From the NCBI GenBank assembly GCA_022843545.1, contig JALHNL010000002.1:47992-111991 (forward strand): a DNA stretch of 64,000 nucleotides, written 5' to 3'. Below are positions 1,494-51,102 of this stretch, in pieces; the stretch's first letter is position 1; each line of letters begins with the position of its first letter. The translations under genes and the position numbers were made by a program. This DNA is from Phycisphaerales bacterium. GTDB taxonomy: Bacteria; Planctomycetota; Phycisphaerae; Phycisphaerales; UBA1924. Under the pieces are notes generated by a model, which was not told the DNA's origin, made no database searches, and worked only from the letters and a program-made list of their open reading frames with translations.

Positions 1494-3719
1494 TCACTTC
1501 ATCTCGTCGGGCATCCACTCCGGCAGGTCGGCGATGGACCGGTGGGCCTCCTCGCTCGTGGGCACGCCCCACTTCTGGAAGAACGGCCCCAGGTTGCGCC
1601 CCGCGGCGCGGCTGAACCTCACCATCCACTGGTCGCGTTCCTGCTGCTCGCCGCGAGGCCGCTGATTCTGGGGCAGAGCGCGATACTCGGCGAACACCTT
1701 CTTGTACGTTTCCCAGCCGAACGCTTCCTGCAACTGCATGTACATCTCGAGCGCCAGGAACGGGTCGGACTTCCACTTCTCGAACGGCGCGCCCGCGGCC
1801 ATGTGCGTGCGCATCTTCTCAACGCGCTGCGAGCGGTCGTTCACCGCGTCGTGGCCCGTGCGCGGCGGTTTGCCGCAGACGGTCTCGGAGACGTACAGCG
1901 AGAAGAGGTTGCAGGTGACCTCGACCGTGCCGCTGAAGGTCCACATCGCGTCCTGATGGTTGTGCCCCATCTCGTGGAAGAGCCCCCAGTTGCCCGAGGC
2001 CAGTTTGGCCGCGATGACCATGTCGTCGGCGGCATCCAGGTGGGTCATGATGGGGTAGCCCGCGTGCATGTAGCCCGCGGAGATCTGCACATCGGCGACG
2101 TAGCGCTCGGGCCGCGCTCGCTCGCGCGGCATGGCCGCCAGATCGGCGCAGGCGTCCATCACGCGGTCCCAGAGTTCCAGCACGGGGCGAGGGTCGTCGA
2201 TATCCCGGACGTGCTCGCTGGGCACGGTCACGATGACCTTGGACGTGGCGAACTCAGCCCAGGGGCCCGGCGCGTTGCGAAGCCGGCTTCGCCACTCCGC
2301 GGGGTCGGTCTTTCCGAGCACGAAGAGCGGCGCCTCCACCGCGCCCTCAATGCGAACACTCACCTCGCCCTTCGACGGCTTCTCCACGCACACATACACC
2401 AGCCCGCCGAAGGGCGACGCGATCTCCATCTCCTCGTCGCCCGCGCCGGCGGTGACCTCCATCGGCCGACTCAGGGTAATCTCGGGCACACGGCTCCACG
2501 AGTCCTTGTGCCACAGGCGATCGGTGTGACTGCCGATCTGAACCCGCGCTGTGCCGGGCTTGATCGCGCCCCCCGCCGGCCAGGTCAGCCGCACCACCTC
2601 GCCCGGCGCGGCGTACAGCCCCAGGCTGTGCCAGCCCGGTGTGGACAGACTGATCGTGCGCTCCGCGGTGATGCGCGGGGCCTGGCTCGGGACCGCGCCC
2701 GGAAACTCCGCCGCTCGCGGGTCAGCCGCCACCTCAACCGGGGCGAGCGACGCCATGGACTCCACGGCGTACGTCACCAAAGCCCGCTCCGCCGGGCGGT
2801 TTGCCCGCAGCGGGGACTTGGCGCTGATCTTCACCGCGCTTAGCCGATCGCGCACCAGCCCGTCCAGCCGCGTGCGATAGACCATGTCGTCGGGCGGCAA
2901 GAGCCGCGTGCCCATCGCCACCGTAACGCCGGCCTGCGGATCGCGCGTGGCGCTGGCCTGTTCCTGCCCGGCGGGAGGAAACAGCGCATCCATCGCGCGG
3001 TCAAAGCGGAGCAACGCTCCCGGCGTTTCGGTCGCGTCAAATCGCTCGGGCAACTGCGGCGCAACGAAATCGTCCGTCCACGCGATCCCCGCTTCACGCA
3101 GCAGGATGCTCGGCTCATGCGTGCGCATGTCGGCCCCGCCGTTGATCTGCTGCCAACCCCACCCCGTCTGCGCGATGATCAGCCCGCCGCCCTCCTTCAC
3201 GAACTTCGCCACGCGCTCTCGAACGTCCGGGGGCATGGACGAACGCGCGGAGACCACCACGTCCACGCCGCTGAGGTCGGGCCACTTCGCCCCGGCCGCG
3301 CGGGCATCGCCATCATGCTGGTTCAGCCACTCGTGCGCGCGAGAGTCCACCGTCAGCACGCGCGGAGGCCGAATCCCCGCGCTGGCGCTGACTTTGACCG
3401 CCCCCGCCCACGCCACGGCGTTCAGAAGCAACCGCCCGGTGTCGCCCTGATCGAGCGTCGCCGGGTCGAGGTAGCCGCTGTGCCCCAGCGCCACCACTCG
3501 CCCGCGCCCCCAGGTGGAGGCGACCACCACCGCCGCCTTTGCGCTCCCGTCCATCTTGCCCACCACCACGGCCTCAGCCGGCGAAGCCAGCGCGATGACC
3601 GCACCGGGCGAGCCCGGCGCGGCGATCTGCTTCACACCCGCGAGCAGAGCCTCTCGCGGCTCGGCGGGCGGGGCGACGGTGAACACACAGACGACACACG
3701 CGGCGAGATAAGCGAGCAT
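1494..3719 (-). CDS. Peptidase M60-like (enhancin/TCAF-like) zinc metallopeptidase with N-terminal amidotransferase-like domain
   Basis: 741 aa with a short signal-like N-terminus. Has the HEMGHNHQ zincin motif typical of M60-like peptidases (HExxHxxQ). The N-terminal half has a GGGLIIAQTGWGWQQ segment like TCAF-type proteins. Confidence 0.7.
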   Translation of the reverse strand: MLAYLAACVVCVFTVAPPAEPREALLAGVKQIAAPGSPGAVIALASPAEAVVVGKMDGSAKAAVVVASTWGRGRVVALGHSGYLDPATLDQGDTGRLLLNAVAWAGAVKVSASAGIRPPRVLTVDSRAHEWLNQHDGDARAAGAKWPDLSGVDVVVSARSSMPPDVRERVAKFVKEGGGLIIAQTGWGWQQINGGADMRTHEPSILLREAGIAWTDDFVAPQLPERFDATETPGALLRFDRAMDALFPPAGQEQASATRDPQAGVTVAMGTRLLPPDDMVYRTRLDGLVRDRLSAVKISAKSPLRANRPAERALVTYAVESMASLAPVEVAADPRAAEFPGAVPSQAPRITAERTISLSTPGWHSLGLYAAPGEVVRLTWPAGGAIKPGTARVQIGSHTDRLWHKDSWSRVPEITLSRPMEVTAGAGDEEMEIASPFGGLVYVCVEKPSKGEVSVRIEGAVEAPLFVLGKTDPAEWRSRLRNAPGPWAEFATSKVIVTVPSEHVRDIDDPRPVLELWDRVMDACADLAAMPRERARPERYVADVQISAGYMHAGYPIMTHLDAADDMVIAAKLASGNWGLFHEMGHNHQDAMWTFSGTVEVTCNLFSLYVSETVCGKPPRTGHDAVNDRSQRVEKMRTHMAAGAPFEKWKSDPFLALEMYMQLQEAFGWETYKKVFAEYRALPQNQRPRGEQQERDQWMVRFSRAAGRNLGPFFQKWGVPTSEEAHRSIADLPEWMPDEMK

Positions 3720-3760: not shown

Positions 3761-5752
3761 TCACATCCCCGGCAGGTGCTTCTCGACCCAGTCGTCCTGA
3801 CGGAGCGTCTCGGCGCGGAGTCGGCGGTCGCGGTTCTGGCTTGCGCCCTGGGCGAAGGCGAACAGCCTCAGCGTGGCCGCCCGCTTCCAGCCCGCGAGTT
3901 CGCCCGGCTCGTTGCAGGTCTTTTTGAGCGACGCAGCCGCGGTCTTGGCGTAGAGCGCCAGCAGCTCGTCCTCGAGGCTCAGGAACATCTGGGCCGAGCC
4001 GGGGTCACCCTGCCGCCCGGCGCGCCCGATGAACTGCCGATCAACACGTTTGGCGGCGTGCATCTCGGTGAGAATGACGTGAAGCCCGCCGGCCTGCCGC
4101 GCGTCTTTGTCCAGCTTGATGTCGGTCCCGCGGCCGGCCATGTTGGTGGCGACCACGATCCCCCCCGAGTGCCCGGCCTGCGCGATGATGCCGGCCTCGT
4201 CCTTGTCGAAGTTGGCGTTGAGGACCTTGTGGGGTAGCCGCCGGGCGGTCAGCCGCTCAGCCAGCGTCTGCGAGGCCTCGATGCTGCGCGTGCCGGCGAG
4301 GATCGGTCGCCCCTGCGCGTGCAGCGCGGCGACGCTCTCGGCGACCGCGTCCCACTTGGCGGCGGCGGACCCGAAGGCGCGGACGGGCCACGTCTCGCGG
4401 ATGACCGGGCGGTTGGTGGGGATCACCGTCACGCGGCGCTGGTACGTCTTCTCCATCTCCAGCGTCGCGTCGGCCGCGGTGCCGGTCATGCCGCACATCA
4501 CCGGATAGCTGCGGAAGAACCGCTGGAAGGACATGCGGGCGATGGTCTCGCGGTCGGCGGTGATCTCCAGCCCTTCCTTGGCCTCCACCGCCTGGTGCAG
4601 CCCGTGCTCCCACGAGCGGTCCGGGAGGAACCGGCCGGTGAACTCATCGACGATGACCACCCGCCCGTCGACGATCTGGTACTGCCGACCGTGGTGATAG
4701 CACGTGAGCGCGATGACGGCCTGGCGCACCAGTTCCTCGGCGCGACGAGTGGCCCGCCAGATCGGGTCCGCCCGCTGGACGAACATCGCGGCGCACTTGG
4801 CGCGGCCGGCGCGGGTGAGTTCCGCCTGCTTGCGGAGGGCGTCGACCGTGACGTCGGTGCGGACCTTCAGCTCGCGCGCCATGGCGGCGGCGTCGCGGTA
4901 GATCGCCGCCATCTCGTCGCTCTTGCGGCTCTGGGCGATAATCAGCGGCACCACCGCCTCGTCGATGAGCACCGCGTCGGCCTCGTCCACCATCGCGGCC
5001 CGCAGCCCCGGCACGATTGGCCCCTGGCTGGCGACGCCCTCGCCCCCCAGCATCCGCAGACCGCCCCACGCGCTGCGCAGCGCGCCCAGGCGGATCTGGT
5101 CGCGGAGCCAGTCCGCGACGATCTGCTTGGGCGTGCCGTAGACGATGGGGAGGGCGTAGACGCGAGCGCGCAGCGCGTGCTCCTGCTCCTGCTGGATCGC
5201 GCCCACCTGCAGCATGCAGCGCTCGTAAATGCCGCGTCGGCTGTCGGCGTCGCGCTTGGCGAGATAGTCATTGACGGTGAGGACGTGCAGGTGGCGATGC
5301 TCCCAGGCCAGGAGCGGGGCGGCGATGGAGCCGGTCAGCGTCTTGCCCTCGCCGGTCAGCATTTCGACGATGCGCCCGCGGTACAGGGCCATCGCCGCCA
5401 TGAGCTGCACGACGTACGCCTCTTCCCCGATCTCGCGCCGCGCGTGTTCACGCGTGATGGCCAGCGCCGCGCGGACCACGGCGTCGTCCTGCCGCCCGCG
5501 CAGGAAGGTCTCGCGCACCTCGGCCGTTCGGTCGGCAAGGGCCGCCTCGCCCAGCGACCGCAGACCCGGCGACAGTTCACGGTCGATGGCCTCCGCCTGC
5601 TTGCGGAGCCACGAGAGCGTGTAGCGACCCGTGCGCACCCTCACGCCCAGCCACGCGGCGAGCTTGTCGAGCCCCTTGAGCGGCAGCGGCTTCTTCTGCC
5701 GCGAACGCAACGACTCGAAGAGCGTCGCGTAGTTGGTCAGGGCCTGGCTCAC
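3761..5752 (-). CDS. SecA-like ATPase, truncated (NBD1-PPXD-NBD2 only; no HWD, two-helix finger or C-terminal tail)
   Basis: 663 aa. SecA signature blocks present: EMLTGEGKTL (Walker A), HVLTVNDYLAKRD, MVDEADAVLIDEAVVPLII, TNMAGRGTDIKL, GRAGRQGDPGS. Only 77 aa follow the last block. The GTG start overlaps the stop of the upstream M50 gene (GTGA). Confidence 0.85.
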   Translation of the reverse strand: MSQALTNYATLFESLRSRQKKPLPLKGLDKLAAWLGVRVRTGRYTLSWLRKQAEAIDRELSPGLRSLGEAALADRTAEVRETFLRGRQDDAVVRAALAITREHARREIGEEAYVVQLMAAMALYRGRIVEMLTGEGKTLTGSIAAPLLAWEHRHLHVLTVNDYLAKRDADSRRGIYERCMLQVGAIQQEQEHALRARVYALPIVYGTPKQIVADWLRDQIRLGALRSAWGGLRMLGGEGVASQGPIVPGLRAAMVDEADAVLIDEAVVPLIIAQSRKSDEMAAIYRDAAAMARELKVRTDVTVDALRKQAELTRAGRAKCAAMFVQRADPIWRATRRAEELVRQAVIALTCYHHGRQYQIVDGRVVIVDEFTGRFLPDRSWEHGLHQAVEAKEGLEITADRETIARMSFQRFFRSYPVMCGMTGTAADATLEMEKTYQRRVTVIPTNRPVIRETWPVRAFGSAAAKWDAVAESVAALHAQGRPILAGTRSIEASQTLAERLTARRLPHKVLNANFDKDEAGIIAQAGHSGGIVVATNMAGRGTDIKLDKDARQAGGLHVILTEMHAAKRVDRQFIGRAGRQGDPGSAQMFLSLEDELLALYAKTAAASLKKTCNEPGELAGWKRAATLRLFAFAQGASQNRDRRLRAETLRQDDWVEKHLPGM

Positions 5753-7941
5753 AGCGTGACCTTCCCTTGAACCGCCTTCTGCAGCATCTCCACCGCCTGG
5801 TGCAGGATCGGGCGGCTGGGCAGCGTGAAGCGGATGTAGACGCGCTGGCCCAGCGCCGCATCCGCAAGCTGCGCCGGATCGACATCCACATAGATCGTGA
5901 ACAGATCGGTGGTCGCGACGCGGTGCGAGCGGTCGTCGGGCATCGTGGCGATCTGCCCGCCGCCGGCGTGGCCCAGCGCCGCGTGCGGGAGGATCCGCTG
6001 CCCCGCGGGGATGGCCCGAAGCCCCGTGGCCTCGATCACCTGGTGCACACGCGACACCAACCGGGCCTGCACGCGGTACTCATCCGGGCTCATCTGGAAC
6101 AGCCAGCCCGAGTCGCCCTGGGGCACGCTCGCCGTGATGCGCCGCTGAGAGAGATCCGCCACCTGGCACACCGGCTCACCCGTGCGCTGGAACGCCCCCA
6201 GGAGGTCTCGCGGATTGGCGCCCACGATGGTCCCGTCGTGCGGCGCTCTCACCACCAGAGCCGCCTCGCGCCGCGCGATGTCGCTGAGCTGCTCCTCCAG
6301 CGCGGCAATCCCGCTCTGCGCCACCGCCGCGCCCGCCGGGTCGTCCTTCGAGAACGCCTCGGCGAGCTTGAGCCTGGCATCAGCGATGGAGGCGATAACG
6401 AACTGCCGCTCCGCGGAGAGTTCCGGGCTCGAGAGCGTGAGGATCGGCTCGTCCTTCTTCACGCTCTGCCCGAGGCGGACATGGACGTCGGAAACGAACC
6501 CGTCGGTGCCCTGGAAGACGCCGGTGATGAGCGGGCTGTCCACCACGCCCACGACGCGCCGGTAATCGGGCACGGGCACCAGCCCGATCAGAGCCGCCCC
6601 GACGGCCGCCAGACCCAGCGTGCCCAGGATCGCTCGGGTGCGATACTCGAGCAGTTGCGGGCTGGTGGCCAGCCAGTGGACGAACTTGCCGATGGGCAGG
6701 ATGAACCACATGGCCGCGGTCCACAGCGCCAGGAAGAGCCCGACGAAGAAGAAGATGCCCAGCACATACAGCGTGATGACGACGAACAGGAAGATGCGGT
6801 AGATCAGCGCCAGCACGCCGTAGGTGATCAGGATCGCCACCTCCCCCGGCTGGTTGCTGGGCGGGCGGGCCTGCTTGATGCGGTAGAAGTAGCGCTGGAA
6901 CAGATGCTGCAGCATCTTGTTGGAGCGCATCATGAGGTTGGGCACCTCGATGAGGTCCGAAAGGATGTAGTACCCGTCGAACCGCATGAGCGGGTTGGCG
7001 TTGAACACCACCGTGCTGATGCCCGAGGTGAGCATGACGTAGTACGAGATCTGCTTGGCGAACGAGCCGTCGGGCGAGGCCAGCCACACCAGCGCCGCGA
7101 TCGAGGCGGCGAACAGCTCGAACATCATGCCGCCCGCGCCCACCGCCACACGCTGCCACTTGTTCGGGAACGACCAGCAACTGGAAGCGTCCACGAAAGG
7201 CGAAGGGATGAGCACCAGCAGCATCGCGCCGAACTCGGGCACCTGCCCGCCGAAGCGGTGGCAGATGACGCCGTGCCCGGTCTCGTGCCAGAGTTTGAGC
7301 AGGATGTAGACCAGGATCATCCAGCCCCAGTTGGAGGGGCTGGTGACCGAGTCAAACTGCCCGACCAGGCGCGGCCACTCGGGGATGATCTGGACGAGCG
7401 CGAAGATCAACAGCCCCAGCCACGCCAGGAAGCCCCAGCGGTTGAGCACCGGCCGCAAGATCGGCTCGATGAAGTTCAGGATCGGCGTGGGGTTGAAGAG
7501 CCGCAGCTTGAAGTACATCAGGCCGATGGCCTGCTGCATCACACGCTTCCTCACGCGCTCACGCCCGCGGGTGAGCAGCTGCTCGGTCTCCGGCGAGGCA
7601 TCAGCCGACAGCAGGTTGCTGTTGTAGAGCTGCCCGAGCAGTTCGATGACCTCGTTCTGCGTGGGGGCCATGTCGCCGAACTTGGAAAGGCTGATCTTCC
7701 AGGCTTCCTCAACGGTGCGCGCGCCGTCGAGCAGCCCGATGAGGTCGTAGGCGATGGGCGAGAGGCGGTAGAACTGGTTGCTGGTCGGGTCGTGCGCGAC
7801 ATGCCAGCGCCGCCCGCGGTAGTGCTGCCGGGTGATCTGCACGTGCGGGCGAAGCCGGGGCTTCATCGCGCGGACACGGTGCCAGAACGGGCTGAAGGTG
7901 GGGCGTTCCATGAGAAAGAGAAGGCACTCGGCAGCGGGCAA
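5749..7941 (-). CDS. M50 (site-2 protease family) intramembrane metalloprotease with PqqD/RRE-like N-terminal module and HlyD-like C-terminal periplasmic module
   Basis: 730-aa ORF (alternative start at 7911, MERPTF). Has HETGH plus NANPLMRFDG, the M50 HExxH and NxxPxxxxDG motifs, and multiple TM helices. N-terminal FYRLSPIAYDLIGLLDGARTVEEAWKISLSKFGDMAPTQNEVIELLGQLYNSNLL resembles PqqD-family peptide-binding domains. The C-terminal approx 270 aa look like a barrel-sandwich plus coiled-coil adaptor. Confidence 0.8.
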   Translation of the reverse strand: MPAAECLLFLMERPTFSPFWHRVRAMKPRLRPHVQITRQHYRGRRWHVAHDPTSNQFYRLSPIAYDLIGLLDGARTVEEAWKISLSKFGDMAPTQNEVIELLGQLYNSNLLSADASPETEQLLTRGRERVRKRVMQQAIGLMYFKLRLFNPTPILNFIEPILRPVLNRWGFLAWLGLLIFALVQIIPEWPRLVGQFDSVTSPSNWGWMILVYILLKLWHETGHGVICHRFGGQVPEFGAMLLVLIPSPFVDASSCWSFPNKWQRVAVGAGGMMFELFAASIAALVWLASPDGSFAKQISYYVMLTSGISTVVFNANPLMRFDGYYILSDLIEVPNLMMRSNKMLQHLFQRYFYRIKQARPPSNQPGEVAILITYGVLALIYRIFLFVVITLYVLGIFFFVGLFLALWTAAMWFILPIGKFVHWLATSPQLLEYRTRAILGTLGLAAVGAALIGLVPVPDYRRVVGVVDSPLITGVFQGTDGFVSDVHVRLGQSVKKDEPILTLSSPELSAERQFVIASIADARLKLAEAFSKDDPAGAAVAQSGIAALEEQLSDIARREAALVVRAPHDGTIVGANPRDLLGAFQRTGEPVCQVADLSQRRITASVPQGDSGWLFQMSPDEYRVQARLVSRVHQVIEATGLRAIPAGQRILPHAALGHAGGGQIATMPDDRSHRVATTDLFTIYVDVDPAQLADAALGQRVYIRFTLPSRPILHQAVEMLQKAVQGKVTL

Positions 7942-7989: not shown

Positions 7990-8024
7990 AGGAAGAGATC
8001 GGGGACCACTCCGACGCGGGCGGG

Positions 8025-9983
8025 TCACCACAACCACAGACGAACAGTGTCGATGATCCTCCGCGTCCCGATCTCCAGGAGCGTGCGGCGGCCGGTGTCG
8101 AGGCTGACGCGGCCTTCCATGCCTGGGCGCATCCACGCGGCGGATTCATCGAGCTTGACGCGCACCTCGAAGAGGTTCTTGCCGTCCTTTGCCTCCGCGA
8201 GCGGCACGATCCGCTCGATGGTGACGGGGAACTCGGTGCCGGGGTGGCTGCGGGTCACGATCGCGCCCCTGCCGCCCTCCTTGATGAGGGCGACGTCGCT
8301 CTCATCCACGCGGACGACCGCGATCATCTCGGCGAGCGGCGCGATTTCGAAGAGCCCTTCGCCCAGCTTCACCGTCGAGCCCACGCGGTTCTTCAGGTCG
8401 CCCGAGATCAGCGTGCCGCCGATGGGCGCGACGATCTTCGTCCGCTCCAGCCGCGACTCCAGCAGCGCCAGCCGGGCGCGGGCCTGCTCGATCTGGGCCT
8501 CGGCCTTCTTGGCCTCGCCCGTGTTCTGCTGGGCGCGGGCCGTGTCCAGCGTCTTCTGCGCCACCAGCATCTGCGAGCGCGACTCCTCAGCCTGCAGGCG
8601 CAGTTCGCTGTCATCCAGTTCCGCGAGCAGCTGCCCGGCCTGGATCGACGCCCCGGGCTCGATGCCCGGCATCACCTTCTTGATCACCCCGTCAAAGGGC
8701 ATGGAGAGGGCCCGCTTCTCGCGGGGGCGCAGTTCGGCCCCGGCGCCGATGCGGTACTCCGCGGAGAAGACCGTCACGATGATCATCGCGACGATGAGCG
8801 CGACACCCGCCAGCTTCCACGCCGTGTGCTTCGGGCCCACCAGCCACGCCCCGGTCCACATCATCGAGTCCCACACCCGCAGCGGCAGGATGCGGTCGTC
8901 GGACCGGCGCACCCGCATCACGGGCGACACCAGGTCCATCGTCGCCTGCAGCAGTTCGACGGTCTTGAGGTCCACCCCCGGCGAGTCGGGCGTGGCGCGC
9001 GATTCGATGGTGATCACGCCCAGCACGTCCTCGCCCACGCGCATCGGGATCGAGCACACGTGCAGGTTCTTCTCGCCCGACGCCAGTTCCTTGTGCGCGT
9101 GGCTGATCGCTTGCGACAGCAGCACGTCCTGATCCGCCGGCGGCACCGGATGCACCACCGCCTGGTCCTGGTCCAGGCACTCGTCCATCGCCGCCTGCAT
9201 CTTCTGCACCATCGTCATCCGGCGGTCAAAGTGCTCGGTGTCGCTGATGGCCATGACGCGGACGCTGTTGCCCCTCAGCCAGCCCATCGCGACGCGGTCG
9301 GCGCCCAGGGTCTTGGCCAGGTCGTTCACGGTCTGGATCGCCGCGCCCTTGAACCCCTGCGCGGAGTTGATCGCGCCGATGAGCCGCGTGGCCAGGTCCA
9401 GCGCCCGCGTGCTCTGGGTGTTGCGCTTGAGTTCCTGACGCACCGCGTGCGTGTGCACGTAGCCCGCGATCACCTCCGCCATCGCCAGCGTGCTCTGGAT
9501 CGCCTGGCGCGAGCGCGGCTCGACCAGCAGCGTGATCGCGCCCGCGCTGCGCCCGCCCTCGCCCGGCAGCGCCAGCGAGAGCACATACCCCGCCCCGCTC
9601 GCCCCGTCGTACAGCTCGCTGGCGTCCTCCATCGCAAAGACGTGCGACGATGAACTCTCGAGCGCCGCCAGCGCGGCCCGCTTCACCTCGGGCAGGCTCT
9701 GGATCTGCGCCACGTCGGCCGGCCCGGGCGCCACGCCCGCCGCGGGCGGCGCCCCTACCGCTCCAGCGGGGAACATCGCGATGGGCATCGCCTCGCCCTC
9801 GCCGCCCTGACCGCCGCCCGAGGCGCTGATCGGGACGAAGAGCACCGCCTGGCGCGCGGCGGACACCAGCGTGAGGATCCGCAGCAGCCGGTCCATGAAC
9901 ACGCGGTCGTCGGGCGCGGAACTGGTGAGTTCCGCCACCACGCGCTGCCAGCCCGCCGCCTTCAGATGAGTCGCGTCAATCAC
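8025..9983 (-). CDS. GAF-like (tandem) - TM - HlyD-type membrane-fusion adaptor fusion protein
   Basis: 652 aa. The N-terminal approx 390 aa are cytoplasmic with GAF-like segments (LAKTLGADRVAMGWLRGNSVRVMAISD...VCSIPMRVGEDVLGVITIESRA). One TM helix (WKLAGVALIVAMIIVTVF) follows. Then a lipoyl-like, coiled-coil and beta-barrel pattern (IQAGQLLAELDDSELRLQ...IVAPIGGTLISGDL). Confidence 0.7.
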   Translation of the reverse strand: MIDATHLKAAGWQRVVAELTSSAPDDRVFMDRLLRILTLVSAARQAVLFVPISASGGGQGGEGEAMPIAMFPAGAVGAPPAAGVAPGPADVAQIQSLPEVKRAALAALESSSSHVFAMEDASELYDGASGAGYVLSLALPGEGGRSAGAITLLVEPRSRQAIQSTLAMAEVIAGYVHTHAVRQELKRNTQSTRALDLATRLIGAINSAQGFKGAAIQTVNDLAKTLGADRVAMGWLRGNSVRVMAISDTEHFDRRMTMVQKMQAAMDECLDQDQAVVHPVPPADQDVLLSQAISHAHKELASGEKNLHVCSIPMRVGEDVLGVITIESRATPDSPGVDLKTVELLQATMDLVSPVMRVRRSDDRILPLRVWDSMMWTGAWLVGPKHTAWKLAGVALIVAMIIVTVFSAEYRIGAGAELRPREKRALSMPFDGVIKKVMPGIEPGASIQAGQLLAELDDSELRLQAEESRSQMLVAQKTLDTARAQQNTGEAKKAEAQIEQARARLALLESRLERTKIVAPIGGTLISGDLKNRVGSTVKLGEGLFEIAPLAEMIAVVRVDESDVALIKEGGRGAIVTRSHPGTEFPVTIERIVPLAEAKDGKNLFEVRVKLDESAAWMRPGMEGRVSLDTGRRTLLEIGTRRIIDTVRLWLW

Positions 9984-10047: not shown

Positions 10048-11052
10048 TCACTTCGCCGCCGCCGCGCTCTTGGGCGATTCGCCCTCGACCGGGGGCGAAA
10101 AGCGGACCCGCACCCGCACGCCCGCGGGCCACTCGCGCGGGTTGGGAGCCTCCACACGCACGCGCCGGCTGCCGCTGGTGTCCACCACGCGCGACACGTC
10201 CAGCACCTTCCCCTTCACCACCGCGTCGCTCTCGGGCGCGCCCGGCGCGTCGAACAGCACCCATGCCGAGTCGCCCGCCTTCAGCCCGCGGATCAGCGTC
10301 TCGTCCGTCGGCGTCGGCACGTCGATCCACACCGGATCGATGCTCACCACGCGCACCACCGGGCCCGCCTGCTCAAAGGCCTGCCCCACTTCGCACGCCA
10401 CCGCCTCCACCACGCCGTCAAACGGCGCTTCCAGCCGGTAGCGCTCCAGTTGCTTCTCGAGCTGAACCAGCCGCGCGGCCTCTTCCTTCATGTCGGACTT
10501 GGCGTTCGCCACCGCGGCCTCGGAGCTCTTCACCTGCGCCACGCGCTCGTCGATCTCCGACTGGTTCAGCGCGTCCTTCGCGAACGCCTCCTGCCCCGTG
10601 CGCAGCCGGATCCTCGCCAGTTCCAGCGACGCCTCCGCGTTCTTCACCGGCGCATCGTTCACCGAGCGAACACGCTGAACCTCGATGCTCGCCACCACCT
10701 CCGCGTCGCGACCGCGGATGAGCAGCTCGCCGCGCTTCACCCGCTGCCCCCCCACCACGCGCACCTCCTGGACCTCCATCGGGATGGTGAAGCCCATGAT
10801 GGCGTCTCGGCTCGGACGCGACACCCACTCAAAGCCCCCGAACGCACGCGCCTTGGACTCCCAGTCCTTGCTCGGCGGGATCGGAACAATCTGCGGGCTC
10901 AGAGCGGGGGCCGCGCCGGCGTAGCCGGGGGCCGACTCGCTCGACGCCGCCGGGCCGGGCTGCGCGATCGCCATCGCCCCCAGCGCCAGCCACGAACACA
11001 CGATGATCCACCCCGCTCGGGGTCCAGGCATTCGTCCGGTCATAGTCCGCAT
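10048..11052 (-). CDS. HlyD/RND-type periplasmic adaptor (membrane fusion protein)
   Basis: The ORF runs to 11235, but the plausible start is ATG 11052 (MRTMTGRMPGPRAGWIIVCSWLALGAMAIAQ signal-anchor). Has a lipoyl-like motif (VKRGELLIRGRDAEV), a coiled coil and a beta-barrel C-terminus. Confidence 0.7.
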   Translation of the reverse strand: MRTMTGRMPGPRAGWIIVCSWLALGAMAIAQPGPAASSESAPGYAGAAPALSPQIVPIPPSKDWESKARAFGGFEWVSRPSRDAIMGFTIPMEVQEVRVVGGQRVKRGELLIRGRDAEVVASIEVQRVRSVNDAPVKNAEASLELARIRLRTGQEAFAKDALNQSEIDERVAQVKSSEAAVANAKSDMKEEAARLVQLEKQLERYRLEAPFDGVVEAVACEVGQAFEQAGPVVRVVSIDPVWIDVPTPTDETLIRGLKAGDSAWVLFDAPGAPESDAVVKGKVLDVSRVVDTSGSRRVRVEAPNPREWPAGVRVRVRFSPPVEGESPKSAAAAK

Positions 11053-11256
11053 GATAGTGGTCTCACGCCCCCACACTCCGAGCGCACCCCCCAAGCTCAC
11101 CCCCGGCGCTCTCGACAACTTCCCTACGCGAGCGCCCGCCGCGCGGATCGGGCGACGTCGCGAACACGCCCGTCGGCAACCGGGAACCCGCGGACTTGAA
11201 CATACCTCTGCCGCCCGCCCCCTCCTATCCTCCATCCTCCCCTAGGAGCCCCCGAC

Positions 11257-12453
11257 ATGACGACCACTGCCACCAACCCGACCTCTTCCCGAACCCTGGC
11301 CATGAACGGCGGCACGCCCGTGAGCGCGACGCCCGTGCCCTTCATGCTCCCCGGGCTGGCCGAGGCGGACATCGAGGCGGCGGTGAAGGTCTTGAAGTCA
11401 GGCATGCTCCGCGCGGCCAAGAAGTGCGAGGAGCTCGAGACCCGCATGGGCCAGCTCTCCGGCGCCAAGCACGCCATGACCTGCGCCAACGGCACCTGCG
11501 CCCTCCAACTCGCCTATGAGCCGCTCCTGCAGCCCGGCGACGACGTGCTCGTCCCCGCCTGGTCCTACATCGCCACCGTCAGCATGATCGTCGCACGCGG
11601 GTGCAACCCCATCTTCGTCGACGCCGACCCCAAGACCGGCCAGATCGACCTCACCGACGCCGCCGGTCGCGTCACCGAGAACACCAAGGGCATCGCCGCG
11701 ACGCACATGTACGGCTGCCCCGTGGACATCGACGGCGTGCAGAGCCTCGCCCGCAGCCACGGCCTGAAGGTGATCTACGACGCGGCCCAGGCCCACCTCG
11801 CCACCTGGAAGGGCCAGGGCATCGGCGCGTTCGGCGACGCCGTCACGTATTCCTTCTACGCCACCAAGAACCTGCCCACCGGCGAGGGCGGGATGGTCAC
11901 CTGCAACAACGACGCGCTGGCACGCCAGATCAAGCTCCTGCGCAGCCACGGTGAAACCGAGAAGTACCTGCACGAGCAGGTCGGTTACAACTATCGCCTC
12001 AACGACATCGCCGGCGCGCTGGGCTGCTCGCGGCTCGACCGCCTGCAGAAGGAAACCGACGCGCGGCGCGCCGCCGCGGCCCGATACGGGCAACTGCTCG
12101 CGAACGTCAAGGGCATCACGCCGCTGGGCGTCACCCCCGGCGCGGTCAGCGCGTATCACCTGTACACGGTGACCTTCGACCCCAAGCAGTTCCGCTGCAC
12201 CCGCGACGAGTTCTGCAAGGCCCTGAACGCCGAGGGCGTGCCCACCGCCCTGCACTACCCGCGCTCGCTCCCGCAGCAGCCCGCCTTCGCCCGCTTCATC
12301 GACAACCAAAGGAACTCCTTCGGCGGCTGGCCCGTCGCAGAGCGCCTCGCGAGCACCGTTTTCAGCCTCCCCATGCACCACGGCCTCTCCGAGGCCCACT
12401 TCGCGGTCATGGCCGAAGCGATCGACAAGGTGGCAGCGGCCTACCGGGCCTGA
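11257..12453 (+). CDS. DegT/DnrJ/EryC1/StrS-family PLP-dependent sugar aminotransferase
   Basis: 398 aa. Family-typical blocks: AxTCANGTCALQLA, GDDVLVPAWSYIATV and YSFYATKNLPTGEGGMV (PLP lysine). Confidence 0.85.
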   Translation: MTTTATNPTSSRTLAMNGGTPVSATPVPFMLPGLAEADIEAAVKVLKSGMLRAAKKCEELETRMGQLSGAKHAMTCANGTCALQLAYEPLLQPGDDVLVPAWSYIATVSMIVARGCNPIFVDADPKTGQIDLTDAAGRVTENTKGIAATHMYGCPVDIDGVQSLARSHGLKVIYDAAQAHLATWKGQGIGAFGDAVTYSFYATKNLPTGEGGMVTCNNDALARQIKLLRSHGETEKYLHEQVGYNYRLNDIAGALGCSRLDRLQKETDARRAAAARYGQLLANVKGITPLGVTPGAVSAYHLYTVTFDPKQFRCTRDEFCKALNAEGVPTALHYPRSLPQQPAFARFIDNQRNSFGGWPVAERLASTVFSLPMHHGLSEAHFAVMAEAIDKVAAAYRA

Positions 12454-12607: not shown

Positions 12608-14158
12608 TCACTTCCCCGGCCAATGCTCCTTGGCCAGGATCGCGTCCACCAGCCCCGTGCGTGCGGCGGGCCGGCGCGGCATCCCGTCCACCTCCGGCGT
12701 GCGCTTGATGAGCATGAACACGCCGGCGACCATGAGCGGCACCGAAAGCACCAGCACCGCCGCCTGAGCGCCGTACCACGCCGCGTCGGCCTTGCCCAGG
12801 TCACTGACCAGCCGGGCCAGGACGATCTCGCCCACGAACCCGCCCAGCAGCACGCCCAGTGCGGTCGCCCCGAATGACGCGGTGTTGGCGATCGCCATCA
12901 CGCGCCCGCGCATCGCGTCGGGCACCAGGTTCTGCATCGCCGCCCACGTCTGGTTGAACGACCAGATCCAGAACACGCCCACCACGAACATGATCGGCCA
13001 GCCCAGCCAGAGCAGCGGGTTGAGCGCAAACGCGGTGATCGCCACGCCCAGACCCGAGAGCGCCATCGGGATGAAGTGGTGCTTGGGGTACCACGCGGGC
13101 AGCCAGCGCAGCGCGATCCCGCCGGTCACCGCGCCCACGCCCTGCACCGCCAGCAGCCACCCCACGATCGATTCGACTGAGGCCTTGCTCGCCCCGAAGG
13201 CGTCGAGTGTGAACTGCGAGAGCAGTCGCACCAGCGGCGCGGCGAACATGCTCGCCACCACCATCGCCAGAAACACCGCCAGCGGGCCGCGGTTGCGCGT
13301 CACAAACTGCCACGCCGACCACAACTGCGCCCGCGCCTTGCGACCATCTTGCGGGGGCGGGGGCGCCGCGGGCGTGCGCGACACCGCCAGCACCACGCCC
13401 AGAAATGTCAGCGTGTTGATCGCGAACAGGGGCGTGGGGCCCGCGGCGTGCATGAGCACCCCGCCCAGGGCCGGGCCCACCACCCGCGCCAGGTTGAACT
13501 GGATGCCGTTGAGCGTGATCGCCTTGGTGAGTTCTTCCCGCGGCACCAGCCGCGGCGTCAGCACCTGCCACGCCGGCATGTTGAACGACATGATCACCGC
13601 GTTGATCGCGCCCAGCCCGATGAGCACCCAGGGCAGCGTCCGCCCCTCGTGAGGCAACAGCGCGCTAGCCAGCGCCACGCACGCCGCCACGCCCATCAGC
13701 ATCACCTGCGTTACGATCAGCAGTTTGCGCCGGTCAACCCGGTCGGCGACCAGCCCGCCGAAGAGCCCCATGAGCAGGATGGGCAGCATCTGGGCCGCGC
13801 CCAGGTACGCCGCCATCTTCAGTTCGCCGGTGATCTTGGCCATCAGCAACTGGACGCCGACCAGTTCCATCCAGCTGCCCACGTTGCTCACAAACGCGGC
13901 GATCCACACGTTGCGGAAGTGCCCGTGCCGCAGAACGCTGCGCTGATACTCCGCCTTCACCGCGCCGACGATCTCGGAATAGCGCCCGCCCGCCGCGCCC
14001 CGCGCCCGCGGCATCGCCGACTGCGCGTCCGCCTCAAACGACGACGCCGCGCCCGTCGCGCTCAGCGAAGCGCGATCACCGTCCGCCTGCGCGTCGGCTT
14101 TGGGAGAGGTTGGCTGTTCAGAGGACACGATCCGGGCTCCGTCCCGCCTTCGTTCCAA
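12608..14158 (-). CDS. MFS transporter (EntS/MFS_3-like)
   Basis: 516-aa ORF with about 12 hydrophobic helices and an MFS motif-A-like GGLVADRVDRRKLL. The N-terminal 60-70 aa are low complexity, so the true start may be internal. Confidence 0.75.
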   Translation of the reverse strand: MERRRDGARIVSSEQPTSPKADAQADGDRASLSATGAASSFEADAQSAMPRARGAAGGRYSEIVGAVKAEYQRSVLRHGHFRNVWIAAFVSNVGSWMELVGVQLLMAKITGELKMAAYLGAAQMLPILLMGLFGGLVADRVDRRKLLIVTQVMLMGVAACVALASALLPHEGRTLPWVLIGLGAINAVIMSFNMPAWQVLTPRLVPREELTKAITLNGIQFNLARVVGPALGGVLMHAAGPTPLFAINTLTFLGVVLAVSRTPAAPPPPQDGRKARAQLWSAWQFVTRNRGPLAVFLAMVVASMFAAPLVRLLSQFTLDAFGASKASVESIVGWLLAVQGVGAVTGGIALRWLPAWYPKHHFIPMALSGLGVAITAFALNPLLWLGWPIMFVVGVFWIWSFNQTWAAMQNLVPDAMRGRVMAIANTASFGATALGVLLGGFVGEIVLARLVSDLGKADAAWYGAQAAVLVLSVPLMVAGVFMLIKRTPEVDGMPRRPAARTGLVDAILAKEHWPGK

Positions 14159-21256: not shown

Positions 21257-24124
<2,868 letters not shown>

Positions 24125-24127
<3 letters not shown>

Positions 24128-49368: not shown

Positions 49369-51102
49369 TCACGCGAAGAACCGGTCGGCGCCGAGCACCA
49401 CCGAGGACAGATGCGAGAAGTCCGCGGGCTGGGAGCTCGCGTGGGCGAACGCCGAGAGGCTCAACTTGAGTTCGACCTTGGGCTGCGTGCCCTGATCCGA
49501 AGCCAGTTCGGCATCGCGGGCGCGGGCCGAGCGGACGTTGAAGCGGACCTGGACATTCTGGGCCTGCGACTGCGCGCCCGAGGGGTCCACGGCCTTGATG
49601 CTGAAGGCGGTGACGGTGCCGCTGCGGACCGGGGAGGTCCAGGTGAAATTCGTGCCCGGGGTGATGAGCACCTCGCCGCGGATGCGCTTGCCGTTGAGCA
49701 TGCCCACGCCGCGCTTGACGGTGAGCTGATAGGAGAGGGTGTCGCCGTCGGCGTCGAAGTCGCTCGCCGCGGCGTCGAGCACGGCGTGTGAGAAGACGAT
49801 GCGCTGGCTGCGCTGGTTGACGGCGATGGGGTCGACGCCGGTGAGCGTGGGCGCGTCGTTGATGTCGGGGTTGCCCGCGGGGGGCGGGTCGGCGGGCGGG
49901 TTGGCGGGGGGAGAAGGGTTGGCCGGCGCGCCCATGGCGGCGATCGCGGAGGCCATCGCGAGCATGTCCACCCGCTTGTACGAGGCGTTCGTGTTCACCA
50001 CGTTGTCGTTCTCGTCGTCGCCGTCCTGGATGACCGCGGCGGTGGTGGTGAGCACCTGGCGGAACTCGCTGACGGAGAGCTTGCGACCCAGGAACTGGAT
50101 CGCGACCTGCTGGGCGAGCACCGCCGCGCCGGCGATGATGGGCGAGGCCATCGACGTGCCGGCCATGCTGACGAAGCCCGAGCCCGACTTGGCGGCGCCG
50201 GAGAGGAACGCGCCGGGGGCGAAGATGTCCATGTTCGAGGATCGCTGCGAGAAGGGCGCGATCACGTTGGGCGCGCTGGAGTGCGCCGTGGAGTTGCTGA
50301 AGCCCACCGGGCCGTAGTTCGCCGCGAAGGTGGCCCCCACCGCGATGGTGTTGGGGTCGGCGGCGGGATAGGCCAGGCCCGGGGTGTTGAACGAGCCGTA
50401 CGAATTGCCCGCGGCGGCGGCGACGATCACGCCCATGCCGGCCAGGGCGGAGAGTTCATCGGCGAGCCCGAATCGACCGGCGCGGGTGGTGTAGTTGCCG
50501 CCGTCGCCCAGAGACATGTTCACCGAGGCGATGTTGTACGCGGCGGCGTTGGCGACGCACCACTGGAGCGCGGCCTCGATGGCGGCGAAGGAGCCCGCGC
50601 CGCTGTTGTCCAGCACCTTGAGCGCGATGATGTTTGCGCCCGGAGCCACGCCGGGGAAGGACGAACCGCCGCCCGCGACGAGGCTGGCGACGTGCGAGCC
50701 GTGACCATGGGCGTCGCCGGCGAGTGCCGCGCCGGAGGTGAAGTCGCGCTGGAAGACGATGCGATCGGCGATGCCGTTGGCGTTGGCGTCGGGCCCGAAG
50801 ACGGGGTGGCTGCTGTTGATGCCGGTGTCGATGATGACCGTCGAGAAGCCCTGCCCGATCATGTTCCCGAAGCGGGCGTCGGCGCGGAAGCCGCCCAGGT
50901 TGATGGCGGTGTGGGCGGCGATGCCCGAACTCCCGCCGGCGGACACGATGATCGGCGGCAGCGAGGCGACGGCGCTGGACGCGGTGGTCGTCAGCCCGCC
51001 CATGAGATCGCTGACCGAAGCGACGGCCAGCAGCGCGCGGGGTTCGAGCGCCTCGAAGGCCTCGGGGGGCGTGCCTGGCTGACGGGCGATGAACTTGGGC
51101 AC
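49369..51102 (-). CDS. Subtilisin-like (S8) serine protease with cadherin-like C-terminal domain
   Basis: Has VIIDTGINSSHPVF (Asp), HGHGSHVASLVAG (His) and GTSMASPIIAGAAVL (Ser). The C-terminus has DINDAPTLTG...DADGDTLSY. The N-terminus reads FEALEPRALLA. Confidence 0.85.
   Translation of the reverse strand: MPKFIARQPGTPPEAFEALEPRALLAVASVSDLMGGLTTTASSAVASLPPIIVSAGGSSGIAAHTAINLGGFRADARFGNMIGQGFSTVIIDTGINSSHPVFGPDANANGIADRIVFQRDFTSGAALAGDAHGHGSHVASLVAGGGSSFPGVAPGANIIALKVLDNSGAGSFAAIEAALQWCVANAAAYNIASVNMSLGDGGNYTTRAGRFGLADELSALAGMGVIVAAAAGNSYGSFNTPGLAYPAADPNTIAVGATFAANYGPVGFSNSTAHSSAPNVIAPFSQRSSNMDIFAPGAFLSGAAKSGSGFVSMAGTSMASPIIAGAAVLAQQVAIQFLGRKLSVSEFRQVLTTTAAVIQDGDDENDNVVNTNASYKRVDMLAMASAIAAMGAPANPSPPANPPADPPPAGNPDINDAPTLTGVDPIAVNQRSQRIVFSHAVLDAAASDFDADGDTLSYQLTVKRGVGMLNGKRIRGEVLITPGTNFTWTSPVRSGTVTAFSIKAVDPSGAQSQAQNVQVRFNVRSARARDAELASDQGTQPKVELKLSLSAFAHASSQPADFSHLSSVVLGADRFFA

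Follow-up and report, generated by a model that had tools for sequence, protein, structure and literature searches.

How does a SecA-type motor work when it ends inside its scaffold helix, and which membrane protein does it serve? The question is raised by a stretch of 64,000 nucleotides from a Phycisphaerales bacterium (GenBank assembly GCA_022843545.1, contig JALHNL010000002.1, positions 47,992 to 111,991), which is referred to here as the window. It encodes a truncated SecA-type ATPase (SecA-short) in one operon with three adaptor-type proteins. One of these is a fusion of an RRE (PqqD) domain, a site-2 protease of the M50 family and a periplasmic adaptor (the M50 fusion). A previous reading of the window (the original prediction) had described SecA-short as a motor that is unlikely to drive SecYEG. 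We describe the structure of SecA-short, the conservation of its operon and the genes that accompany it in other bacteria. From gene context we propose, with a probability of roughly 55%, that SecA-short is the cytoplasmic ATPase of an envelope-spanning, type I secretion-like exporter and processor for proteins with a LEPR leader, in which it replaces the ABC transporter.

A SecA motor that ends inside the scaffold helix

The five motor signatures claimed in the original prediction are all present in the 663-residue open reading frame (ORF): MLTGEGKTL at residue 131, VLTVNDYLAKRD at 157, VDEADAVLIDEAVVPLII at 255, TNMAGRGTDIKL at 536 and GRAGRQGDPGS at 576-586. The PPXD-like insert reported between them corresponds to the Pfam family SecA_PP_bind (PF01043, residues 282-390, 5.7e-23). 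The other Pfam matches are SecA_DEAD (residues 46-433, 3.5e-78) and P-loop_SecA (3.5e-51). In 29 of 29 diverse SecA-short sequences, Walker A, the DEAD box and the arginine-finger motifs do not vary. Identity to canonical SecA is 35-37% overall, and BLASTP aligns residues 45-654 with residues 17-650 of E. coli SecA at 35% identity. The best structural matches of the AlphaFold2 model (pLDDT 80, pTM 0.74) are SecA chains, with the top TM-scores to the SecY-bound structures 6itc and 5eul (TMq 0.77-0.78).

Exactly 77 residues follow GRAGRQGDPGS, as had been counted. They hold more of the scaffold than the first turns of its helix, which is how the tail had been described. The tail AQGASQNRDRRLRAETLRQDD, beginning at residue 634, pairs with a segment of E. 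coli SecA in the BLASTP alignment. The model ends with a single helix of 39 residues (621-659), so most of the long scaffold helix is retained and the protein stops near the end of that helix. Because the alignment ends at E. coli residue 650 and the protein itself at about residue 659 of 901, about 240 C-terminal residues are missing and not the roughly 300 first estimated. As predicted, SecA-short really lacks the end of the scaffold, the wing, the two-helix finger (IRA1) and the Zn-binding C-terminal linker, and Pfam matches no wing/scaffold domain in it. The missing parts had together been said to insert into SecY; in SecA-SecYEG structures this is true of the two-helix finger and not of the others.

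SecA-short is not assigned by the NCBIfam equivalog profiles. It scores 509 against a cut-off of 814 (NF009538) and 506 against 800 (TIGR00963) with the SecA models. With the SecA2 models it scores 385 against 725 (TIGR04221), 398 against 930 (TIGR03714), 464 against 1085 (TIGR04397) and 351 against 1100 (NF012136). The SecA and SecA2 models cover it only to about position 600 of 760-814.

Both termini have features of their own. The N-terminal extension is without a counterpart in canonical SecA and is modelled as two helices (residues 2-19 and 28-41); Y8 and G27-L-D29 are conserved across phyla. The C-terminus carries the family motif AQxxAxxxxxxxRxxVLRxDxWLxExLxF, in which D653 is present in 29 of 29 sequences and W655 and L660 in 25 of 29 each. 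Over the last residues of the model the pLDDT drops to 58 and then to 41. This would fit an end that folds only on a partner.

The truncation is natural and conserved. Among 5.8 billion proteins, a search found over 120 relatives with 62-98% identity, almost all of 653-693 amino acids and mostly from metagenome-assembled Phycisphaerales. HMMER, run exhaustively against 1.84 billion representatives of clusters at 50% identity, found 18,544 SecA-like proteins. The nearest 150 of these are nearly all about 590-720 amino acids long (most 626-702), with three clearly shorter and two longer than 1000, so that at least about 145 such clusters share the short length. In the loci that were fetched from about ten phyla, all homologues stop 0-11 residues past the equivalent of window residues 660-663. 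Homologues whose BLAST alignment ends near residue 600 still carry a comparable tail of 53-70 residues. The relatives from other phyla (Verrucomicrobia, Proteobacteria and others) are 35-46% identical and have the stop point, the motifs at both termini and the gene context in common with SecA-short of the window.

A continuation hidden by a frameshift had been named beforehand as an outcome that would refute the prediction. The gene for an M60-like peptidase with its own signal peptide begins 41 nucleotides after SecA-short, and this gap leaves no room for one. A frameshift or hidden continuation is thus ruled out by the downstream gene and by the stop point common to the relatives. Nor does a neighbour supply the missing domains: no protein of the operon has a Pfam match to the wing/scaffold. 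A second, canonical secA was not found by tblastn within the window.

A module of four genes in many phyla

A scan for the M50 fusion with one genome per species gave at least 578 loci, of which 80 were fetched (L-numbers below are locus labels). They span Phycisphaerae, Tepidisphaerales, Methylomirabilota, Verrucomicrobiota, Kiritimatiellia, Spirochaetota, Fibrobacterota, Magnetococcales, and Beta- and Gammaproteobacteria. Of 72 informative loci, 68 have SecA-short directly after the M50 fusion, and in 67 of 74 the gene for a GAF-domain adaptor lies directly upstream of that fusion. ORF clustering over the loci finds only the four operon genes conserved across phyla. A TolC/OEP gene is part of the operon in 16 of about 34 loci outside Phycisphaerae and also on the Methylosinus plasmid. 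No ABC transporter is encoded in the window operon or in the inspected flanks of L062 and L054, and no secY2 or other Sec gene occurs in the module loci.

The M50 protein, which the original prediction called the obvious partner, remains the best candidate, and gene order suggests that SecA-short docks on it. The description of the two genes as co-translated fits the window, where they overlap by 4 nucleotides. It is less general elsewhere, as the distance varies from -21 to 211 nucleotides.

The M50 fusion consists of a cytoplasmic RRE-like domain (about residues 35-107), a polytopic M50 core (about 168-453) and a periplasmic adaptor (about 456-725). The first domain matches PF05402 (PqqD) with 27.7 bits against a cut-off of 23.4 and is modelled as three strands with helices over residues 35-107. 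The catalytic motifs HExxH (H219, E220, H223) and NxxPxxxxDG (N314-G323) are kept in 35 of 35 sequences from different phyla. Residues 28-413 cover the profile of the RRE-fused protease of daptide clusters (NF041824) almost from end to end (1.3e-48), at 166 bits, below the cut-off of 300. The adaptor part has an alpha-hairpin (506-560) and a fold like that of MacA, MexA and AcrA. Because Foldseek returned adaptor-protein matches only, the assignment of the site-2 protease fold rests on sequence motifs and profiles. Databases name the protein 'putative peptide zinc metalloprotease' (KEGG/JGI) or 'PqqD family peptide modification chaperone' (NCBI). Its translation probably starts at M11 (nucleotide 7911), judging from homologues that open at MERPTFSPF. 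The small adaptor probably also starts further in than listed, at M62-M68 (about 11034-11052), just ahead of its signal-anchor segment.

The family to which SecA-short belongs is known. 'Secondary SecA_DEAD domain proteins' without all or most of the wing/scaffold were described as a clade apart from the canonical SecA of their hosts and adjoining actinobacterial SecA2 (Kamneva, Poudel & Ward 2015, PLoS One, PMC4452313). Their locus includes Peptidase_M50/HlyD, GAF/HlyD and HlyD/biotin-lipoyl proteins and sometimes an OEP. In the proposal of that study, the ATPase stands where a type I-like system has its ABC transporter, and the M50 membrane protein is a possible pore or partner (PMC4452313). 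The finding and the interpretation of the original prediction therefore repeat a published bioinformatic result, and SecA-short of the window is a Phycisphaerales member of this family and nothing different in kind. Relative to that study, the new elements are the RRE (PqqD) domain, the invariance of the catalytic motifs, the exact stop point and the terminal motifs. New members come from Phycisphaerae, Fibrobacterota, Spirochaetota, Kiritimatiellota and Methylomirabilota. The proposed link to cargo in the form of RTX, giant and LEPR proteins is also new; PMC4452313 makes no mention of PqqD, HExxH, RTX, adhesins or any cargo.

Several details vary between loci. A weak terminator-like hairpin (7998..8015, minus strand) lies between the GAF adaptor and M50 fusion genes of the window, and such sites are no commoner than in shuffled sequence. 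An internal terminator after the GAF gene was inferred in M. extorquens (PMC4452313). A DUF3467 protein of about 100 amino acids occurs in seven proteobacterial loci (L085, L086, L089, L071, L074, L075 and L077) and is absent from the window. Its gene lies between the giant gene described below and the adaptor genes, or in L071 downstream of SecA-short, and the protein may be a cargo chaperone. A SapC-family protein is encoded in or beside the module in five other proteobacterial loci (L087, L088, L095, L080 and L078), none of them with DUF3467. Annotation of the family is inconsistent. RefSeq labels SecA-short 'prepilin peptidase' in Methylosinus sp. C49 (L086, 11887-13803) and Pseudosulfitobacter (L087, 13782-15806), and in Mesorhizobium and Pontibrevibacter it has the label 'DEAD/DEAH box helicase'. 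The Oceanospirillum locus (L077, 12082-13905) has a degenerate gene at the position of SecA-short, with an ORF of 607 amino acids in which nothing but the PPXD and the last part of the DEAD domain can still be recognised.

Giant proteins, the LEPR motif and a proposed exporter

Candidates for the cargo are found beside the module. A tblastn search of plasmids located the module on alphaproteobacterial replicons, and in five of five annotated loci it is directly preceded by a giant gene on its own strand. All five giants open with the motif h-[ED]-x-[LM]-E-P-R-x-[LM]-[LF], 20-60 residues from the start, and two of them are named 'LEPR-XLL domain-containing protein' in RefSeq. In the Alisedimentitalea giant, annotated as 'calcium-binding protein' (L095, about 2025-2130, minus strand), the motif VEQLEPRLLLAADF shortly precedes the annotated Met in the same frame, and the annotated start seems to be too far downstream.

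Outside the Alphaproteobacteria, a similar arrangement is seen in Verrucomicrobiota, Kiritimatiellota, and Beta- and Gammaproteobacteria. An ORF with the LEPR motif lies just downstream of SecA-short in L056, L059, L064, L066, L070 and L083 (Verrucomicrobiota and Kiritimatiellia). It follows the small adaptor gene in the Cellvibrio loci L073 and L079, and close variants of the motif occur in L080 and L082. Where the flank allows it, these ORFs of non-plasmid loci continue for more than 1,290 up to more than 2,900 amino acids before the locus ends; three are truncated by the end of a contig and one has about 480. The NCBIfam profile NF012209 ('LEPR-8K') is matched above its cut-off by seven of the eight motif-bearing ORFs tested. 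Further giant ORFs flank the module in L062, L072, L075, L077 and L088, with their N-termini beyond the fetched DNA. RTX repeats are present in the Fibrobacter giants (L062 and L072) and in a giant on the opposite strand of the Spirochaetota locus L054.

The window itself holds one candidate with this motif, the gene for an S8 peptidase. The extended LEPR motif occurs once in all six frames of the window, at the N-terminus of this protein, and not at all in 30 shuffles. The segment FEALEPRALL agrees with FEALEPRLLL of Mesorhizobium at nine of ten positions. A LEPR motif is found near the N-terminus of 23 of 120 homologous S8 peptidases. No classical signal peptide is obvious by eye in the S8 peptidase of the window.

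The motif has a history of its own. An N-terminal 'export signal' was noted in 2004 in Rhodopirellula, and in 2021 once more in Tuwongella. Planc_extracel, a motif closely similar to LEPR-XLL, was proposed by planctomycete workers as an orphan export signal (Mahajan et al., PMC8567305). Tuwongella has 52 genes with a motif of this type, including eight of the ten longest proteins, and neither a machinery nor a SecA was named (PMC8567305). A 2026 preprint describes N-terminal LEPRxLL domains on Chlorobium chlorochromatii proteins of 36,806 and 20,647 amino acids that are without known transport signals. Their genes are flanked by sapC and tolC, and a horizontally acquired secA is noted. No paper that joins the LEPR motif to the SecA-short/M50 module was found in the literature that was searched.

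In the proposed exporter, SecA-short would work with the M50 fusion, the GAF adaptor, the small adaptor and a TolC-type outer-membrane channel. The RRE domain would bind the N-terminal LEPR-XLL or 'ExLExRxLL' leader of the cargo. The PPXD clamp of SecA-short would then grip the unfolded chain, and ATP would drive it into the inner-membrane assembly. SecA-short would dock on the M50 and GAF proteins from the cytoplasmic side, and not on SecY, through its own N- and C-terminal motifs, which may substitute for the lost two-helix finger and wing. The M50 active site would remove or process the leader, the three adaptor proteins and TolC would convey the chain through the periplasm and the outer membrane, and the GAF domain could gate or regulate the machine. 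The putative cargo of Planctomycetota would be dispersed surface enzymes and other surface proteins such as the S8 peptidase of the window. The usual cargo in Proteobacteria and Verrucomicrobiota would be one adjacent giant of 8,000-13,000 amino acids.

A number of points weigh against this exporter. To our knowledge, no site-2 protease is a protein-conducting pore. The two-helix finger is thought to push the chain in canonical SecA and is absent from SecA-short, and threading would thus need a different mechanism. RTX repeats usually accompany C-terminal type I signals, so the giants may leave by a classical system of their own. PF07595 and NF012209 may describe different motifs, and NF012209 gave no match to the S8 ORF of the window at E <= 0.01. 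An adjacent giant or LEPR gene is present in only about 10-17 of 34 loci outside Phycisphaerae, many of whose flanks end with the contig. In Phycisphaerae the LEPR-motif genes are unlinked to the module in the two genomic places checked (45 kb apart in the window). No TolC/OEP gene lies within the 64 kb of the window, and the channel is presumably encoded elsewhere in this genome. The Cellvibrio loci L073 and L079 (8867-13759 in the latter) combine the GAF adaptor, the M50 fusion, the small adaptor and the LEPR-motif ORF, a giant in L079. No SecA-short was found within 10 kb in either, and the motor may have its gene elsewhere or not be needed there. Expression in M. extorquens is low (PMC4452313), and no experimental follow-up of the 2015 family was found in the literature.

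Other explanations account for part of these observations. The module could carry out ATP-dependent regulated intramembrane proteolysis or quality control instead of export, with SecA-short unfolding or extracting a substrate for the site-2 protease and the GAF domain as sensor, in a signalling or degradation role. In its favour are the classical role of site-2 proteases in signalling cascades, the invariance of the M50 catalytic motifs, the GAF sensor domain and the lack of an evident pore-forming transporter. This alternative is unlikely in view of the three periplasmic adaptor domains with alpha-hairpins of the TolC-docking type, the TolC gene of the operon in many lineages and the genes for giant extracellular-type proteins that adjoin the module. 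An envelope-spanning conduit is favoured because the adaptors, the operon TolC and the giant neighbours are otherwise hard to explain.

Ranked below this is a role in the maturation and export of peptides that are made by the ribosome and modified after translation (RiPPs) or bacteriocins. Here the RRE-M50 protein would cut a leader as in daptides, SecA-short would replace an ABC exporter and the precursor gene would lie elsewhere. The RRE and site-2-protease architecture does fit the profile of the daptide leader peptidase, and the database names of the M50 fusion given above point the same way. However, neither a conserved short precursor ORF nor a modification enzyme was found near the module in 83 loci at two stringencies. 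The output of that search consisted of shadow ORFs of the operon genes, DegT and OEP, low-complexity noise and clusters from few loci; the one real small gene was that of DUF3467. The recurrent neighbours are giant, and a SecA-type motor with a PPXD is suited to long unfolded chains. We consider this role improbable.

Less probable again is that SecA-short is a SecA2-like accessory ATPase that acts on the housekeeping SecYEG to export a subset of proteins, with its neighbours acting after translocation. Its identity to SecA, the fold match over the full motor and PPXD and the best TM-scores to SecY-bound SecA would agree with this. So would the retained part of the long scaffold helix, which contacts SecY in complexes. 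The absence of the two-helix finger, wing and linker speaks against it, as do the SecA2 cut-offs, which are far from reached. SecA-N68, a laboratory truncation, is said to hydrolyse ATP without translocating. The order with the M50 fusion is kept in 68 of 72 loci, and these are without secY2 or other Sec genes. The position of the clade beside actinobacterial SecA2 is in favour of this alternative (PMC4452313). Finally, that SecA-short is a pseudogene, frameshift or assembly artefact of a normal secA is next to impossible: nothing but its shortness favours it, and it is contradicted by the more than 120 relatives and at least about 145 clusters of like length, the stop point shared across phyla, the conserved C-terminal motif and the next gene that begins 41 nucleotides on with its own signal peptide.

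The exporter with SecA-short as its ATPase is thus the explanation that we prefer. A wider claim would be that the module is a distinct and widespread Gram-negative secretion pathway with LEPR-XLL/Planc_extracel as its signal, recognised by an RRE domain taken over from RiPP biology, and with a SecA motor without the SecY-inserting parts. It would export planctomycete surface proteins and giants of 8,000 to more than 30,000 amino acids, which are among the largest proteins known from bacteria. This claim is tentative, and we would put it a little short of an even bet.

Other genes that were noted in the window are given in Table 1. The M60-like peptidase was considered as cargo or partner and rejected: among the related loci only L053 has such a gene in the vicinity of the module, there on the other strand, and the peptidase probably does not belong to the module. 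The DegT/DnrJ-type aminotransferase keeps its position beside the operon in 31 Phycisphaerae loci and in no other phylum, which looks like lineage synteny rather than a functional link. The pyrophosphatase and MFS_3 genes are ordinary, and tRNA and Rfam scans gave no match anywhere in the window.

Table 1. Features of the window and giant proteins encoded beside the module on alphaproteobacterial replicons
Feature	Position	Strand	Description
SecA-short (SecA-type ATPase)	3761..5752	-	GTG start, 663 amino acids; DEAD-type motor (nucleotide-binding domains NBD1 and NBD2) with PPXD, ending inside the long scaffold helix
SecA-short, N-terminal extension	5621..5752	-	Residues 1-44; family-specific; alignments to canonical SecA begin at residue 45
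SecA-short, PPXD	4571..4936	-	Roughly residues 273-394; Pfam PF01043
SecA-short, C-terminal helix and last four residues	3764..3892	-	Helix at residues 621-659; about E. coli SecA 617 to about 659
M50 fusion (RRE(PqqD)-site-2-protease-adaptor)	5749..7941	-	730 amino acids as listed; stop overlaps the SecA-short start by 4 nucleotides
GAF adaptor (GAF-transmembrane-adaptor protein)	8025..9983	-	652 amino acids; cytoplasmic GAF domain, one transmembrane helix (about 391-409), periplasmic HlyD/RND-type adaptor; in 74 loci
Small adaptor (membrane-fusion protein)	10048..11235	-	First operon gene; HlyD_D23 and biotin-lipoyl matches; in 65 loci
M60-like (enhancin/SslE-type) zinc peptidase	1494..3719	-	Signal peptide; 41 nucleotides downstream of SecA-short
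DegT/DnrJ-type aminotransferase	11257..12453	+	Divergent from the operon
MFS_3 transporter	12608..14158	-	Ordinary gene
H+-translocating pyrophosphatase	21257..24127	+	Ordinary gene
S8 (subtilisin/mycosin-like) peptidase	49369..51102	-	Candidate cargo, 577 amino acids; N-terminus MPKFIARQPGTPPEAFEALEPRALLAVASV with LEPRxLL-type motif FEALEPRALL
Giant protein, Mesorhizobium ciceri			About 10,500 amino acids
Giant protein, Methylosinus sp. C49			About 8,800 amino acids
Giant protein, Pseudosulfitobacter			About 12,900 amino acids
Giant protein, Pontibrevibacter			About 10,600 amino acids
Giant protein, Alisedimentitalea			About 8,100 amino acids

Significance and comparison with known systems

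By itself, SecA-short is a further member of a family known from comparative genomics since 2015. Its context joins three loose ends: an orphan SecA-derived motor whose partners resemble those of type I secretion, an orphan planctomycete export signal and the LEPR-XLL giants, which include the symbiosis proteins of 20,000-36,000 amino acids of Chlorobium chlorochromatii. If the link is true, a new secretion route is defined, the surface proteome of Planctomycetota and Verrucomicrobiota becomes predictable, and a SecA motor has been re-wired to a channel other than SecY. What is added here is the reading of the partner as an RRE/site-2 protease, the terminal motifs and the recurrent adjacency of LEPR-XLL giants, which together make one testable hypothesis.

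The closest known proteins are the secondary SecA_DEAD proteins of 2015. They likewise combine SecA_DEAD and PPXD without the wing/scaffold, and in the window the three adaptor-type neighbours lie directly upstream in the conserved order. Canonical SecA shares NBD1, PPXD, NBD2, all catalytic motifs and most of the long scaffold helix with SecA-short. It differs in having the C-terminal residues (about 240) that SecA-short has lost, whereas SecA-short adds the 44-residue extension and the DxWLxExLxF end.

SecA2 of mycobacteria, Clostridioides and Bacillus is also a second SecA paralog for particular cargo with a reduced C-terminus. However, it has 760-790 amino acids, keeps the scaffold and the two-helix finger and has SecYEG or SecY2 as partner, whereas the gene context of SecA-short is a different one. 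SecA-N68 of E. coli, which is reported to have a deregulated ATPase and not to translocate, comes close to SecA-short in domain content with its motor and PPXD (PDB 5k9t). It is artificial, whereas SecA-short is natural, conserved, about 40-50 residues longer and equipped with terminal motifs of its own.

The daptide protease MpaP, an RRE-dependent intramembrane peptidase to which the leader-removal step was assigned (daptide paper), resembles the M50 fusion in its N-terminal RRE, its M50 core and the conserved metal-binding motifs (NF041824). The M50 fusion adds a C-terminal periplasmic adaptor and has no RiPP enzymes or short precursors nearby. The module as a whole is comparable to type I secretion and to peptidase-containing ABC exporters (HlyBD-TolC and CvaAB-TolC), which also combine an adaptor, TolC, a cytoplasmic ATPase and a leader protease and likewise have genes for giant RTX-type proteins next to them. 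In place of an ABC transporter the module has a SecA-derived ATPase, together with an M50 protease that carries an RRE domain, three different adaptors and a putative N-terminal signal.

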